IMG/VR virus record: IMGVR_UViG_2690315815_000009
From: a virus
Lineage: Duplodnaviria; Heunggongvirae; Uroviricota; Caudoviricetes
Length of the DNA stretch: 43,512 nucleotides
Direction: 5' to 3' (one strand)
Position 1 is the stretch's first letter, and every line of letters begins with the position of its first letter. The notes under the pieces are model-generated. The model did not search any database. It saw nothing but the letters and a program-made list of their open reading frames with translations, and was not told the DNA's origin. A program made the translations under genes and the position numbers. Positions 1,864 through 27,282 of this stretch are shown here, piece by piece.

Positions 1864-3500
1864 CCCGCCGCAGCTGGTTTATCAAACATCGCGCCACGAT
1901 TGTACGAACTCGCAGCCTGTCTCAGTCCATCGAGCACCCCCGACGCTGCAGATTGTTGTATTGACTGCGGATCTGTCGCACCGACAATATTGATTTCGAT
2001 TTTATTGTTTTGCTCCGGCGCAGGTGTCGAGACTGCCTGCTTCAACGTATCAATATTTAACGTCGACGAATCCAGTGCTGCAGGCGCGGTATTTTTATTT
2101 ACCATCCCGGATAATGGATTAACAAACGCGAGCATTGATTCTGCCTGAGATTTTGCCTGTTCTTGCCGTTCTGGATGCCGCATATTTTCGACAGCCTCTT
2201 CGGCTTTTGCCTTCGCAATATTATCAGCAGTCAATCCAGCGTTCGGTGAATATTTACCTCCCGAATCCATAAACTCTTGATATGCCCGATTATATTCGTC
2301 ATTATAAGTTTTCTGTTCTTCATCTGATTTTTCATCCGGAATAAGCCACTCCAGTTTCTTTACGACAGCCCATATAATCTTCCCGAATTTGACGCAACCT
2401 TCTCCAAAATTGACGATGCCATCCCACATTTTTTTCATATTTTCTGGTTTTACCCACTCAGTAATTGTGCTGACAAAACCACCCTGATTATCCTTAAACC
2501 AGGATGTAAATGTTTCACGTACTGAGTCAAACGTCGGCGCGAGTTCCCCCCCGATTTTACCGAGTGTATCTGCAAGTCCCGACGTAATAGAGCCCCACAG
2601 ATTTGTCACTGATACATGCGCACGCGCCGCCCCTTCCGCACCCTCTTTTGTTAACAAATTCGACTTTTGCGCGTCAGACATTGTCTGTTCCCAGCTTTTA
2701 CCCGTCGCCTTCATATACGTCATGATCTTATTAGCCTCGCCCCCCATGAGCTGGTCAGCGAGGCTCGCCGCTTGCTTCTCATCTTTCATTTCAGAGATGC
2801 GACGCATAACCTCATTAAACTGTTTTTCCCGATCCCAGCCAGCCATTCGTTTTTTCGTCAGGCCAATTTGAAATAACATGGGATTCAGGCTTTTTTCGTT
2901 TCCGATTTCGCCGATTTTATTTGTAAGTTCTTCAGACAAATCCCCGATATTTTCGCCGTTCAGGCCCGCGGCTTTACCAATATTTTCCCACGCAGCGTAT
3001 TTTTCGACGCCAACGCCGTAGGACTTCGCCAGACCGAGTTTTTCTGACGTCTCTGCATTCATTGCCAGCGCACCAGCTGCAGCACCGCCAATGAGCCCTG
3101 CCGCGCCAAGTGTCCCCCATTTGATACCCCGCCCCGTAGCCCTCACCGCACCTGCGGCGGCTCGTCCGCCCCATTTTGCAGCTCCTTTTGCGCGACCCGT
3201 CCACTTCTCCAGCCGCTGTTTTTTAGCAAGTTGAGTATTCAGCGCCTCCTGGTCCTGCGTTGTCGCTTTTATTCGACGGTCCAGCTTTTGATACTGAGCA
3301 GATAAATCAGAAACGTCTTTACCTGCCAGTTTCATTGCTGCGATTTTGTCTTTTAATTTATCCTGACTTTTCGTTAATTTCCCGACAGTAGACGACGTCT
3401 GCCGAATCGCATCATTGAGTTCTGTTGTACCGCGACGAAACGACGGGTCTATTCGCCCACCGAATACAACCTGCGTTTTAAAGTTTTGAGAAATAGCCAT
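1860..3500 (-). CDS. Tail tape measure protein
   Basis: 546 aa, Ala/Gly/Lys-rich with coiled-coil character and a Gly/Ala-rich membrane-like stretch; lies between the tail chaperone E gene and U. Confidence 0.75.
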   Translation of the reverse strand: MAISQNFKTQVVFGGRIDPSFRRGTTELNDAIRQTSSTVGKLTKSQDKLKDKIAAMKLAGKDVSDLSAQYQKLDRRIKATTQDQEALNTQLAKKQRLEKWTGRAKGAAKWGGRAAAGAVRATGRGIKWGTLGAAGLIGGAAAGALAMNAETSEKLGLAKSYGVGVEKYAAWENIGKAAGLNGENIGDLSEELTNKIGEIGNEKSLNPMLFQIGLTKKRMAGWDREKQFNEVMRRISEMKDEKQAASLADQLMGGEANKIMTYMKATGKSWEQTMSDAQKSNLLTKEGAEGAARAHVSVTNLWGSITSGLADTLGKIGGELAPTFDSVRETFTSWFKDNQGGFVSTITEWVKPENMKKMWDGIVNFGEGCVKFGKIIWAVVKKLEWLIPDEKSDEEQKTYNDEYNRAYQEFMDSGGKYSPNAGLTADNIAKAKAEEAVENMRHPERQEQAKSQAESMLAFVNPLSGMVNKNTAPAALDSSTLNIDTLKQAVSTPAPEQNNKIEINIVGATDPQSIQQSAASGVLDGLRQAASSYNRGAMFDKPAAAG

Positions 3501-11515: not shown

Positions 11516-11896
11516 TTAGTATTTTGAATACTCGCTGTTTTCGCTGGACGTGTGAGGCTCTAAAAAAATATTCGTGAGCCCTGTGCCATCAGGTTGAGGC
11601 TCTTTAACCACGTAATCGGTCCAGCCAGACCAGGTAACAGAGCCGTCAGGTTCGATGCTGCGCTGCTTTGGAACCTGGACGACGTCACGCGCAACAACGC
11701 CAGCGACGTCGTCCGAGAGCGCCGTCAGGCTCGTTACTGTACCGGTAATAAAACCAGCGTGAGGAACGTCAACGCGCGCGTAAGGCTCGTTGAAAATAGC
11801 GATAATGGGGTCGGTTTTACCGCGTAATTTAACGGGCCGTCCCCACTCACGGATCATCTCCTCGTCGCCGGCCCGGAGGTCATCGTAGTAGCTCAT
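11516..11896 (-). CDS. Putative head-tail joining protein (FII-like position)
   Basis: 126 aa immediately after the FI-like gene; positional inference. Confidence 0.35.
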   Translation of the reverse strand: MSYYDDLRAGDEEMIREWGRPVKLRGKTDPIIAIFNEPYARVDVPHAGFITGTVTSLTALSDDVAGVVARDVVQVPKQRSIEPDGSVTWSGWTDYVVKEPQPDGTGLTNIFLEPHTSSENSEYSKY

Positions 11897-23052: not shown

Positions 23053-23232
23053 TTACGCGTCAGGGGGTGTAATAGTATATCCAGCTATTTCTGCCAACTC
23101 GAGAAACGCCATCAGGCTGGCAATCCGCTCATCATCGGTCAGAACACGCACACCAACGATGTGTCCGTCCTTACGCTTGATAACAGCCCGGCATGTTTCC
23201 GGTAGTTCGCCTATAGATTCTTGAATATTCAT
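23053..23232 (-). CDS. Hypothetical small protein whose start abuts the IS left end
   Basis: ORF with ATG at 23232 (MNIQESIGELPETCRAVIKRKDG...) and a G-rich SD; the IS inverted repeat begins about 12 nt upstream. Confidence 0.3.
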   Translation of the reverse strand: MNIQESIGELPETCRAVIKRKDGHIVGVRVLTDDERIASLMAFLELAEIAGYTITPPDA

Positions 23233-23243
23233 GTCTTCCCCCC

Positions 23244-23290
23244 AATGCCACAACCTGTATATTTATGGGTCTTCCCCTGTTGTGGTGGGT
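23244..23290. repeat. IS left terminal inverted repeat
   Basis: Matches the reverse complement of 25131-25177 with a 3-bp indel and a few mismatches. Confidence 0.6.
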
Positions 23291-23365
23291 GGTACATAAT
23301 TGAGCGATTTTCAAACACCACACAGTACCTTTATGGTGTCTCTTTTTACATGAGAGGGAATTCTT

Positions 23366-23884
23366 ATGAGTGTGCCGCAAACAAAAGCTGAACTGCTTTT
23401 AGCTATTGATAAAAATTTTAGTAAATTAATTAGTTACCTCAACACAATCCCACCAGAAATTACTTCAGATAAATCAATGGACGGACACGCCAAAGGAACG
23501 GAGATGAGTGTTCGTGATCTCGTTTCGTATCTGCTTGGATGGAATGCTCTTGTTGTAAAGTGGATCGCTTCTGATGCTAAAGGTCTGCCTGTCGATTTTC
23601 CGGAAACTGGCTATAAATGGAATCAGCTTGGCCTTCTTGCTCAAAAATTTTACTCAGATTACAGTGAGTTAAGTTATGAGTTGTTAGTAGCTGAACTTCA
23701 GACTGTAAAAAATGAGATTGTGAACCTTATTAATGATCGTACCGATGATATTTTGTATGGAAGACCATGGTACACAAAATGGACGATGGGGAGAATGATC
23801 TCATTTAACACATCTTCGCCTTACGCCAACGCTAATGGAAGATTAAGAAAGTGGGCAAAAAATAATAATATCAGTTTAAAGTAA
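23366..23884 (+). CDS. ClbS/DfsB-family protein (DUF1706), passenger gene of the IS
   Basis: 172 aa; pattern GHAKGT..SV.DLVSYLLGW ... YGRPWYTKWTMGRMISFNTSSPYANANGRLRKW resembles the colibactin self-resistance protein ClbS family; GAGGGAA SD upstream. Confidence 0.7.
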   Translation: MSVPQTKAELLLAIDKNFSKLISYLNTIPPEITSDKSMDGHAKGTEMSVRDLVSYLLGWNALVVKWIASDAKGLPVDFPETGYKWNQLGLLAQKFYSDYSELSYELLVAELQTVKNEIVNLINDRTDDILYGRPWYTKWTMGRMISFNTSSPYANANGRLRKWAKNNNISLK

Positions 23885-23902
23885 GCTTCAGAATGAAATT
23901 AT

Positions 23903-25123
23903 ATGGACGAAAAATCCCTCTATGCCCATATCCTTAACCTGACTGCACCATGGCAGGTTAAATCCCTTACCCTCGATGAAAATGCAGGTTCCGTTACTGT
24001 TACAGTCGGAATTGCTGAAAATACTCAGTTAACCTGTCCGACCTGCAGGAAATCCTGTTCTGTTCACGATCACCGACATCGTAAATGGCGCCACCTTGAT
24101 ACCTGCCAGTTCATGACATTAGTAGAAGCCGATGTTCCCCGCGTTATGTGCCCGGAGCATGGCTGCCAGACTCTGCCTGTACCGTGGGCAGGTTCCGGCA
24201 GTCGGTACACTCTGCTGTTCGAATCGTTCGTGCTCTCATGGCTTAAAATCAGCACCGTTGATGCGGTCAGAAAACAACTTAAACTTAGCTGGAATGCCGT
24301 TGACGGCATCATGACCCGCGCGGTTAAGCGAGGCCTGTCGCGGATTAAAAAGCCTTTATCAGTGCGTCATATGAATGTAGACGAAGTCGCCTTTAAAAAA
24401 GGGCATAGGTATATAACCGTGGTATCTGATCGCGACGGGCGGGCACTGGCATTAACCGATGATCGTGGCACAGAGAGTCTTGCCAGCTATCTCCGTTCGC
24501 TTACTGACAGTCAGTTGTTGGCCATCAAAACACTGTCGATGGACATGAATGCGGGCTATATAAGAGCAGCGCGTATCCATTTACCCAATGCGGTCGAGAA
24601 AATCGCCTTCGATCGCTTCCATGTGGCGAAGCAACTGGGCGAAGTGGTTGATAAAACCCGCCAGAATGAACATCCGCACCTCCCTGTTGAAAGTCGTCGT
24701 CAGGCCAAAGGTACCCGCTTCCTGTGGCAGTACAGCGACAAATGGATGACTGAGTCCCGGCAGGAAAAGCTGATGTGGTTGCGGGAACAGATGCAACAGA
24801 CAAGCCAGTGCTGGACACTGAAAGAGCTGGCAAAAAATATCTGGGATCGCCCCTGGAGCACAGAACGCAGGAATGACTGGTTGCAGTGGATATCGCTGGC
24901 GTCTGAATGTGATGTGCCGATGATGAAAAACGCAGCGAAAACCATTAAAAAACGGTTATACGGAATACTGAATGCAATGCGTCATCGCGTCTCGAATGGA
25001 AATGCGGAGGCGCTGAACAGCAAGATCAGACTGCTGAGGATAAAGGCCAGGGGATACCGAAACCGGGAACGCTTTAAACTGGGAGTTATGTTCCACTATG
25101 GGAAACTGAATATGGCGTACTGA
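23903..25123 (+). CDS. ISL3-family transposase
   Basis: 406 aa; N-terminal Cys/His zinc-finger-like region (CPTCRKSCSVHDHRHRKWRHLD...CPEHGC) and C-terminal NAEALNSKIRLLRIKARGYRNRERFK typical of ISL3 transposases. Confidence 0.85.
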   Translation: MDEKSLYAHILNLTAPWQVKSLTLDENAGSVTVTVGIAENTQLTCPTCRKSCSVHDHRHRKWRHLDTCQFMTLVEADVPRVMCPEHGCQTLPVPWAGSGSRYTLLFESFVLSWLKISTVDAVRKQLKLSWNAVDGIMTRAVKRGLSRIKKPLSVRHMNVDEVAFKKGHRYITVVSDRDGRALALTDDRGTESLASYLRSLTDSQLLAIKTLSMDMNAGYIRAARIHLPNAVEKIAFDRFHVAKQLGEVVDKTRQNEHPHLPVESRRQAKGTRFLWQYSDKWMTESRQEKLMWLREQMQQTSQCWTLKELAKNIWDRPWSTERRNDWLQWISLASECDVPMMKNAAKTIKKRLYGILNAMRHRVSNGNAEALNSKIRLLRIKARGYRNRERFKLGVMFHYGKLNMAY

Positions 25124-25130
25124 GTCTTCC

Positions 25131-25177
25131 CACCATGATCGGGGAAGACCCATATTTATACAGTATTTTATGGCATT
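25131..25177. repeat. IS right terminal inverted repeat
   Basis: Reverse complement matches 23244-23290; begins 8 nt after the transposase stop codon. Confidence 0.6.
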
Positions 25178-25276
25178 TGTCATAACGCCAAATACAATGA
25201 GGGAATAATGAACAATTATATTCACGTCGTGAATTTTATTAAACGGTTTTATAGGGGATTAAACCGTTTATGGTCA

Positions 25277-26793: not shown

Positions 26794-27282
26794 ATGGCTA
26801 CCAACCCAAGAGAGCACGCCCGGCGAGTGCTGGACACGTTCTGGTGCGGGCGTGGTTTCCCTGTTGATCCAGCGAAAATTGCTCACGACATGGGATTAGA
26901 TGTTTTTATTACCGATCTTCCTGGGAAAGTTTCTGGCGCACTGATTAAACAAAAAGATCAAGATCCAGCGATCTTTCTAAACAGTGATGACAACAAAGTT
27001 CGTCAACGTTTTTCATGTGGGCATGAGTTGGGGCATTACATCGCCCGGCAAGCATCGCATAGCGATGAATATGAGTACGTTGATTTACGTGGCGAAACCG
27101 CAAGCGCCGGAACGCATCCTGATGAAATTTTTGCAAACAAGTTCGCAGCAGAACTTCTGATGCCGGTAGATGAGGTCAGAAAACTGCACGCTGACGGTCA
27201 ACCAAGTTATATAATGGCGCATTATTTTGGCGTATCTGACGATGCGATGACTTATCGTTTAAAGAACTTGAGGTTGGGGTAA
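26794..27282 (+). CDS. ImmA/IrrE-family metallo-endopeptidase (COG2856)
   Basis: 162 aa with HEXXH motif (CGHELGHYI) and downstream FANKFAAELLMP, characteristic of ImmA/IrrE; strong GGAGGA SD. Confidence 0.8.
   Translation: MATNPREHARRVLDTFWCGRGFPVDPAKIAHDMGLDVFITDLPGKVSGALIKQKDQDPAIFLNSDDNKVRQRFSCGHELGHYIARQASHSDEYEYVDLRGETASAGTHPDEIFANKFAAELLMPVDEVRKLHADGQPSYIMAHYFGVSDDAMTYRLKNLRLG

Follow-up and report, generated by a model that had tools for sequence, protein, structure and literature searches.

Insertion sequences (ISs) of the ISL3 family can carry passenger genes, as does ISPpu12, which holds extra genes inside its inverted repeats. ISEc53, the subject of this report, likewise combines an ISL3 transposase with an extra gene, although its cargo differs; ISPpu12 is not known to be specific for LexA boxes. 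The same pair has been described as the 'clbS-like transposon' of E. coli ST131 and ST69, which is found on plasmids, chromosomes and prophages and consists of a clbS-like dfsB/DUF1706 gene and a single ISL3 transposase (bioRxiv 10.1101/2025.11.17.686825); that preprint gives no ends, duplication or target for the element and mentions neither 'LexA' nor 'SOS'. Here we analyse a 43,512-nucleotide stretch of DNA from a Caudoviricetes virus (IMG/VR record IMGVR_UViG_2690315815_000009; the whole stretch is called the window below), in which an element identical to ISEc53 lies within a lambdoid-type prophage, as judged from the list of open reading frames and PHROGs. A sequence-only reading of the window had recognized an ISL3-family IS with a ClbS/DfsB-like passenger inside a prophage, which Pfam and NCBIfam matches and the prophage gene context bear out, and had regarded this cargo arrangement as unusual, whereas element and cargo were already known from RefSeq and the preprint. 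What the present analysis adds are the exact ends of the element in the window and its target, the LexA operator; the target is the new point, with a prior description possible.

Some transposons select target sites at which a protein is bound to the DNA, among them the Tn5053/Tn402 'res hunters', Tn7 (through TnsD/TnsE) and the yeast Ty/Tf elements; the Tn5053-type 'res hunters' need a resolvase-bound res site, and Ty/Tf elements use DNA-bound host factors. Base-precise insertion into short, repeated intergenic palindromes is also described for IS1397/ISKpn1 and ISPpu9/ISPpu10 in REP/BIME sequences (PMC1525189, PMC12288879). The targets of those ISs, which belong to families IS3 and IS110, are structural repeats, whereas the target of ISEc53 is the operator of a global transcription factor. 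Within the open literature (ISfinder notes and subscription journals lay outside the search) we found no report of LexA-box targeting by ISs: the publications that name ISEc53 do so in passing and say nothing on its target, those on IncX3 blaNDM plasmids draw its relative ISKox3 beside umuD and do not describe a LexA-operator target, ISKox3 and LexA occur together in none, the works containing both ISL3 and LexA are unrelated to target choice, and the SOPE genome paper (PMC3914690) does not mention a target for ISSoEn4, a further relative.

The window carries an intact copy of ISEc53, which occupies positions 23267–25151 on the plus strand (1,885 bp), as defined by its identity to RefSeq-annotated ISEc53 copies and by an empty-site allele. 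When the junctions of the window copy were aligned with those of six copies fetched from different genomic places, an identical 1,885-bp span, running from GGGTCTTCCCC to GGGGAAGACCC, proved common to all seven copies at seven different sites. The left terminal inverted repeat (IRL, GGGTCTTCCCCTGTTGTGGTGGG, positions 23267–23289, plus strand) is the inner 23 nt of the repeat detected in the window, and its counterpart on the right (IRR, ending in CCCACCATGATCGGGGAAGACCC, positions 25129–25151, plus strand) was delimited by the repeat search and the junction alignment. Both repeats begin with GGGTCTTC; they match at 19 of 23 positions, the first 11 being identical, and the junction alignments place an IRL-type end in all relatives as well. 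A perfect 8-bp target-site duplication, ATATTTAT, flanks the element on the left (23259–23266) and on the right (25152–25159), so that the copy has the imperfect terminal inverted repeats and 8-bp duplication of ISL3-type ends. The sequence-only reading had missed this duplication and had set the boundaries at 23244 and 25177, 23–26 bp too wide. It was right that imperfect inverted repeats bracket both genes, but their length of about 47 bp does not hold: the repeat of the IS is 23 bp long, and the remainder is target, which looked like an extension because the target is itself palindromic (CTGT...ACAG plus AATGCCA/TGGCATT). Our repeat finder likewise returned inverted arms of 35 nt (23255–23289 and 25129–25163, 83% identity), and the further inverted repeat AATGCCA/TGGCATT lies outside the LexA box, at 23244–23250 and 25171–25177.

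The sequence restored by joining the flanks across a single copy of the duplication is ACCTGTATATTTATACAGTA, a CTGT-N8-ACAG palindrome with an AT-rich spacer, and the duplicated 8 bp are exactly the spacer of this consensus LexA operator. A LexA matrix built from 18 published E. coli LexA boxes (PMC3009722, Table 4) gives the restored site 24.7 bits, the best score in the 43.5-kb window, where the next best reaches 11.2. On the strength of the matrix we predict that the prophage site binds LexA. The operator, which the sequence-only reading did not recognize in the outer part of its repeat, is now split, its left half (AC-CTGT) lying at 23253–23258 and its right half (ACAG-TA) at 25160–25165; the ATG of a phrog_340 gene follows 22 nt downstream of the box. 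On its left side the window site has the flank AATGCCACAAC, which is similar to that of the E. coli dinG box (AATGCCACAATA; locus L004, about 3000–3012), a likeness that may reflect chance or shared promoter architecture.

Both identical copies at other sites and empty-site alleles, which the sequence-only reading had proposed to look for, were found. A megablast search of the region against 5,426 complete E. coli genomes returned 3,570 matching places in 1,737 genomes (median, 2 copies of the element per genome), and at least 80% of the query was covered in about 714 records, chromosomes and plasmids alike, whose annotation reads 'ISL3-like element ISEc53 family transposase' and 'ClbS/DfsB family four-helix bundle protein'. 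Copies 100% identical to the window element carry WP_000343765.1, the RefSeq 'ISL3-like element ISEc53 family transposase'. The exact window insertion is present in thirteen genomes, and the 1,885-bp form occupies at least 10 distinct sites. In every copy examined the passenger lies within the IS ends, between the left repeat and the transposase as had been proposed; ends inside 23290–25130 would have placed it outside the IS, and the true ends at 23267 and 25151 keep it inside. The reconstructed empty site, consisting of the flanks and one copy of the duplication (801 nt), is present as a contiguous, 100% identical sequence in more than 400 E. coli chromosomes, among them those of EC958, JJ1886 and other O25b:H4-ST131 strains. 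The element is thus mobile by two signs, identical copies at different sites and an allele without it.

The same target recurs at the other copies. At all seven ISEc53 insertions the duplicated 8 bp, which differ among copies (ATATTTAT, ATGTATAT, ATATTTTT, ATATAAAT, CTGTTTAT and TTTTATAT), are preceded by CTGT (CTGG or TTGG in two) and followed by ACAG. The chromosomal sites lie upstream of dinD, dinG and sbmC, and once reconstructed they agree letter for letter with the published LexA boxes of these genes (PMC3009722, Table 4), including the atypical dinG box TATTGGCTGTTTATACAGTA; on a plasmid, the insertion precedes a dinI-like gene and umuDC. The dinD, dinG, sbmC and umuD boxes of K-12-type sequences are free of any IS and have CTGT-N8-ACAG a single time. 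ISKox3, a passenger-less relative of 1,316 bp that is present in 1,524 E. coli records, shares its ends and its target with ISEc53, and the transposases of the two are 90% identical. Five of its annotated copies in E. coli adjoin tisB/istR, hokE, sbmC, umuDC on the chromosome and, on an IncX3 plasmid, an S24-peptidase gene. Each of the five lies within CTGT-N8-ACAG and has a perfect duplication, and the tisB/istR, sbmC and umuDC boxes are the published ones. The sbmC box has been hit by both ISEc53 and ISKox3, in opposite orientations.

We then asked how far this pattern extends. A protein scan of one genome per species gave 64 loci, mostly from Enterobacterales, with transposases 60–99% identical to that of the window, and most of them show the order CTGT, 8-bp duplication, IS, 8-bp duplication, ACAG. 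To these loci were added sites sampled blindly with respect to the flank, by searching viral and metagenome contigs with the 22-nt left IS end alone. Among 160 distinct left flanks from genome, viral and metagenome collections, CTGT stands at positions −12 to −9 in 124 and CTG in 137. Clustering of related flanks reduced 165 flanks to 140 clusters, and at these 140 unrelated sites CTGT is found in 105 and CTG in 118, against a chance expectation of 0.5 (binomial P about 1e-220). At 48 distinct two-ended sites with a perfect duplication, CTGT-N8-ACAG is present in 37 and CTG-N10-CAG in 42, and their consensus, AAATACTGTATATATATACAGTATTT, is the LexA consensus.

The tetranucleotides are insufficient on their own; the unused motifs have ordinary spacers. 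Unoccupied CTGT-N8-ACAG motifs number 29 in the 1.75 Mb of DNA that we fetched, as many as expected by chance, and only 4 of these 29 have a spacer with at least 7 of 8 positions A+T, compared with 91 of 124 used sites (Fisher P=4e-9). On the LexA matrix the used sites have a median of 24.4 bits, compared with 20.1 for the known boxes (leave-one-out), 7.7 for the unused motifs and −28 for random 20-mers (Mann-Whitney P=2e-8). Some good LexA-like boxes (for example TACTGTTTATACATACAGTA) are unoccupied a few kilobases from an inserted copy (L114, position 4425; L181, 6828; L100, 8888), so nearby boxes are not always filled.

The genes beside the insertions are in keeping with the target. A Pfam scan of 150 outward-facing neighbouring open reading frames, called naively, found Peptidase_S24/UmuD (14) and DinI (7) to be the commonest families, with RecA, SulA, SSB, UvrA, DinB-type IMS polymerase, Tag, YdjM, SbmC, phage GtrA and integrases among the others; umuD-like and dinI-like neighbours are seen on plasmids and prophages too. 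BLAST grouped 25 UmuD-like neighbours into one cluster, 18 of which start 15–37 nt from the IS end; 13 lie to the left of the IS and 12 to the right, and an orientation bias relative to the SOS gene was accordingly rejected. In several prophage contigs a gtrA gene (5 cases) or a phage integrase gene (3–4 cases) stands beside ISs in LexA-like boxes, always at the left flank (for example L080 and L073), which suggests that LexA boxes occur at the int/gtr end of P22-like prophages.

Several observations weigh against so strict a preference. About 14–16% of the flanks lack CTG; Candidatus Symbiopectobacterium has off-target insertions with 9-bp duplications; and one Achromobacter copy, as well as a lineage with 45% identity (L304 and L305, flanks TCTT...AATG), is not in LexA-like sites. 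Metagenome contigs can moreover be chimeric across IS copies, and the duplications are mismatched at 42 of 90 two-ended sites, at which both flanks are usually still LexA half-sites. Weighing all of this, we are confident, on comparative grounds, that ISEc53, ISKox3 and their relatives insert almost exclusively and with base-exact register into LexA operators, and that this would be a property of the lineage and not an accident.

How might such a target be found? ISEc53 transposed into the prophage of an ST131-type E. coli at the exact centre of the consensus LexA operator, duplicating its 8-bp spacer. The transposases of the lineage (ISEc53, ISKox3 and ISSoEn4-like elements, down to about 45% identity) are proposed to cut where CTGT and ACAG border the AT-rich spacer, so that their usual 8-bp stagger would coincide with the LexA spacer and the elements would, as a result, home to SOS boxes, be they chromosomal or on plasmids or prophages. 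Each insertion splits the operator, leaves one half-site at each junction and parts the SOS gene from its promoter and operator side. The benefit to the element would be that every host, as well as most conjugative plasmids and prophages, offers it conserved 'safe' sites between genes, and the plasmids and prophages with such sites would also carry it between cells. As for recognition, we lean towards the transposase itself reading the operator, with a dimer making symmetric contacts to the four bases just beyond each cut and needing a deformable AT-rich centre. Because chance occurrences of CTGT-W8-ACAG are rarer than one per genome, direct readout alone would select almost only genuine LexA boxes. 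A symmetric target consensus around a staggered cut is, furthermore, common for DDE transposases such as those of Tn10 and IS30.

A second explanation, to which we give roughly half that credence, is that the transposase does not read the operator itself but is brought there by LexA dimers that occupy their boxes, or by the shape that these impose on the DNA. The ISL3 lineage would then perhaps dock on operator-bound LexA dimers and insert between the half-sites, with a global transcription factor serving as its targeting subunit; Tn5053/Tn402, Tn7 and Ty/Tf provide the model for such guidance, although ISEc53 encodes no accessory targeting protein. The target logo does match that of LexA at each of the 20 positions, the flanking TA and the alternating AT spacer among them, but a requirement for CTGT, an AT-rich 8-mer and ACAG would by chance pick almost only genuine LexA boxes, so that the flanking matches would come free. 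The weak, non-consensus dinG box, with TTGG in one half, is used in exact LexA register, and the off-target insertions lack even partial resemblance to CTGT/ACAG, as expected if targeting were a separable add-on; on the other hand, perfect CTGT/ACAG is slightly commoner among the used sites (37/48) than among natural E. coli boxes (about 10/18), which hints at direct readout. That the specificity persists across transposases only 45% identical, in hosts that all share the CTGT-N8-ACAG LexA motif, would suit a role for LexA, yet bound LexA would cover the very phosphates that need to be attacked, and profile, BLASTP and PDB searches revealed no LexA-like or LexA-binding domain in the transposase. 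Pairwise BLASTP did align transposase residues 280–334 (window positions 24740–24904) with the N-terminal DNA-binding domain of LexA (27% over 62 residues, E=0.008); we attribute this similarity to chance, as a PDB-wide search for transposase/LexA similarity gave no hit at E up to 10 and the region is the least conserved one in the clade. The sequence data fit both guidance by LexA and direct readout.

It is very improbable, by comparison, that insertion is random or merely AT-biased and that the LexA pattern arose from selection, with intergenic insertions as the survivors, or from clonal sampling. Insertions into genes are often purged, and some of the flanks are indeed orthologous copies, as the reduction from 165 to 140 clusters shows; the register is nevertheless base-exact at 105–118 of the 140 unrelated flanks, AT-rich 8-mers number in the thousands in intergenic DNA, no more than a few kilobases from IS copies there are ordinary CTGT-N8-ACAG motifs that are unused, and the same box has been hit independently by different ISs in both orientations, as at sbmC. 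The notion that the IS spans 23244–25177 with inverted repeats of about 47 bp and no duplication, or that CTGT...ACAG are its true tips, draws on the repeat that runs past the IS in the window copy, where the target is palindromic, and has next to no probability left, since the 8 bp between CTGT and the IS vary by copy and are repeated directly, not inverted, in each, and since uninterrupted CTGT-N8-ACAG occurs in the IS-free K-12-type boxes and the empty site in more than 400 genomes.

A lineage that reads a 16–20-bp operator as its target would offer a simple, one-protein system for site-specific insertion by a DDE transposase. Every insertion of this kind would destroy a LexA operator and uncouple an SOS gene, affecting umuDC mutagenesis, the TisB persistence toxin, SbmC, DinG, and the SOS modules of prophages and plasmids. 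ISKox3 and ISEc53 are common in ST131, ST69 and IncX3 blaNDM plasmids and would therefore constitute a recurrent, so far unnoticed source of variation in the SOS regulon of clinical strains. Because LexA boxes are found on most conjugative plasmids and many prophages, the clbS-like, FosA-like and effector cargoes of the lineage (see below) would move easily between replicons. Should guidance by LexA prove true, the spread of these elements and the rewiring of umuDC, tisB, dinG and sbmC in pandemic clones and on NDM plasmids would be coupled to the state of the DNA-damage response. The low copy numbers would also be accounted for if targets were in limited supply: the median is 2 per E. coli genome, and ISSoEn4, an ISL3 relative with a 71% identical transposase, has 19 copies in SOPE, where three other ISs reach 117–311 (PMC3914690, Table 1). 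The experimental base consists of the published LexA boxes and the biochemistry of ClbS, while the targeting account itself is drawn from sequence.

The two genes of the element are readily classified. The transposase (positions 23903–25123, plus strand) has 406 residues, with zinc-ribbon, helix-turn-helix and DDE domains (Pfam PF14690, PF13542 and PF01610, with E-values down to 1e-58), and scores 328 bits against the NCBIfam equivalog NF033550 (cut-off, 180), which identifies it as an ISL3-type enzyme. The passenger (positions 23366–23884, plus strand) is a dfsB/clbS-like protein with a DUF1706 four-helix bundle, and the assignment of its 172 residues to the ClbS/DfsB family stands: it matches PF08020 over profile positions 1–165 of 166 with 183.9 bits. 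Its sequence is that of PDB 5COF (100% identity), an uncharacterised protein from E. coli. The transposase start codon lies 19 nt past the passenger stop codon, and given this spacing the two genes probably form one co-transcribed operon. No strong sigma-70 promoter for the passenger, either outward or internal, passed a consensus scan of the IS. A scan with the LexA matrix found no LexA-like box above 8 bits inside the IS, and control of the passenger or the transposase by the SOS response through an internal box was rejected.

From its sequence, the passenger would be expected to hydrolyse colibactin-type cyclopropane warheads and thereby to protect the host DNA. It is 54% identical to ClbS over 166 residues (PDB 6ANR, E=1e-55), a member of the same Pfam family, and retains Tyr55 (..DLVSYLLGW.. 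aligned with ..NLVSYLIGW..); according to bioRxiv 10.1101/431098, which cites Tripathi 2017, this tyrosine is an active-site residue of ClbS required for cyclopropane hydrolase activity and protection. Moreover, every ClbS-like protein assayed by Silpe et al., at 25–80% identity to ClbS, protected against colibactin (PMC8907063). The passenger differs from ClbS in lying outside a pks island, on an IS. Set against this evidence, the possibility that it is no colibactin-resistance enzyme but a DUF1706 protein with another role appears unlikely, though it has some points in its favour. Its relatives in the PDB include 5CIV, a 'sibling bacteriocin', and 5COG, IRC4, and the DfsB family takes its name from a Paenibacillus 'sibling bacteriocin' and also counts yeast IRC4 as a member. 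The colibactin activity of the clbS-like passenger was also left unassayed in the preprint on the clbS-like transposon (bioRxiv 10.1101/2025.11.17.686825), and other cargoes of the same IS clade, namely GNAT, a FosA-like glyoxalase, an M91 effector, SH3 and BOF proteins, have nothing to do with DNA damage. Given the diversity of these cargoes in Pfam, we rejected the view that DNA damage links every passenger of the clade; the ClbS-like gene is without functional tie to the SOS target, and the lineage is a general carrier of small cargoes.

In the prophage, the IS separates the phrog_340 gene from its operator and promoter side. This gene (positions 23053–23232, minus strand; 59 residues, function unknown; assigned from the open reading frames and PHROGs) is the first one downstream of the operator in the empty allele, and its ATG at 23232 is preceded by GGGGGGAAG. 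It is followed leftwards, all on the minus strand, by NinB/Orf-like, HNH, Q-like antiterminator and lysozyme-like genes. To the right of the IS, a consensus scan picked out a promoter-like TTAATA-16-TATAAT that reads leftwards to the box (positions 25215–25242, minus strand). A second candidate, recognized by eye, consists of ATGACA (25183–25178), a 17-nt gap and TATAAA (25160–25155), with its −10 element in the spacer of the box; it fails the scan rule that demands T at position 6. Both candidates are now directed into IRR, antisense to the transposase. If the candidate promoter serves the gene string that contains Q, the insertion should change SOS-linked expression of the prophage. Hybrid junctions acting as working operators were considered and rejected: where ACAG or CTGT is needed the IS supplies GGGT or ACCC, which match at 0 of 4 positions. 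An ImmA/IrrE-type metalloprotease-like gene (phrog_87) lies at 26794–27282 in the prophage regulatory region, about 1.6 kb to the right of the insertion.

Beyond the clade, whose transposases are 60% identical or more, a database search showed a gap and then a tier of about 45% identity. This tier includes a Marinobacter element inserted in TACTGGTCAAACGTACAGTA upstream of yebG, and LexA-like flanks are also seen in two of three Achromobacter copies and in two further elements; distant relatives come from Providencia as well, and the lineage is represented in Gamma- and Betaproteobacteria. When viral contigs were scanned with a profile for distant relatives, nothing beyond members of the clade came up. 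Four loci were labelled as coming from hosts outside the Proteobacteria (Chryseobacterium, L053; Vagococcus, L022; Arthrobacter, L012; Chloroflexota, L008), but their flanks have about 50–53% G+C and are of enterobacterial type, and three of the four are short contigs of 1.4–6 kb. We set them aside as probably mislabelled or contaminant contigs, and for this reason they cannot serve to test the targeting in a host whose LexA motif differs.

Candidatus Symbiopectobacterium endolongispinus (L026–L055) contains more than 25 copies of a relative with 70% identity. Many of them have left and right flanks from different LexA-like sites, which suggests recombination between copies. The 9-bp off-target duplications in this genome include TGACTGCCC in L039 and ACTTCAACC in L044. 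The non-LexA flanks of L037, L040 and L044 share a CTTCA(A/C)C motif.

Cargoes of the clade are found on either side of the transposase. A relative of 1,761 bp holds a gene for a 133-residue protein matching Pfam Glyoxalase downstream of the transposase and inside the inverted repeats (L019, 5262–5660; also L175 and L049); its N-terminus is FosA-like, and it may represent a mobile cargo of the fosfomycin-resistance type. An Erwinia relative carries a Peptidase_M91 effector-like protein (L021, 1500–2198), a Rouxiella relative a GNAT acetyltransferase together with a 128-residue unknown protein (L017, 3332–3778 and 5225–5608), and an Izhakiella relative a 293-residue protein without a Pfam match (L061, 3096–3974); a double-SH3 protein (L114, 6633–6980) and a BOF/YgiW protein (L213, 947–1333) complete the set. 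Lastly, a 14-kb metagenome contig (L145) has two left IS ends in opposite orientation about 9 kb apart, at 2391–2412 (minus strand) and 11698–11719 (plus strand), which could be a composite arrangement.

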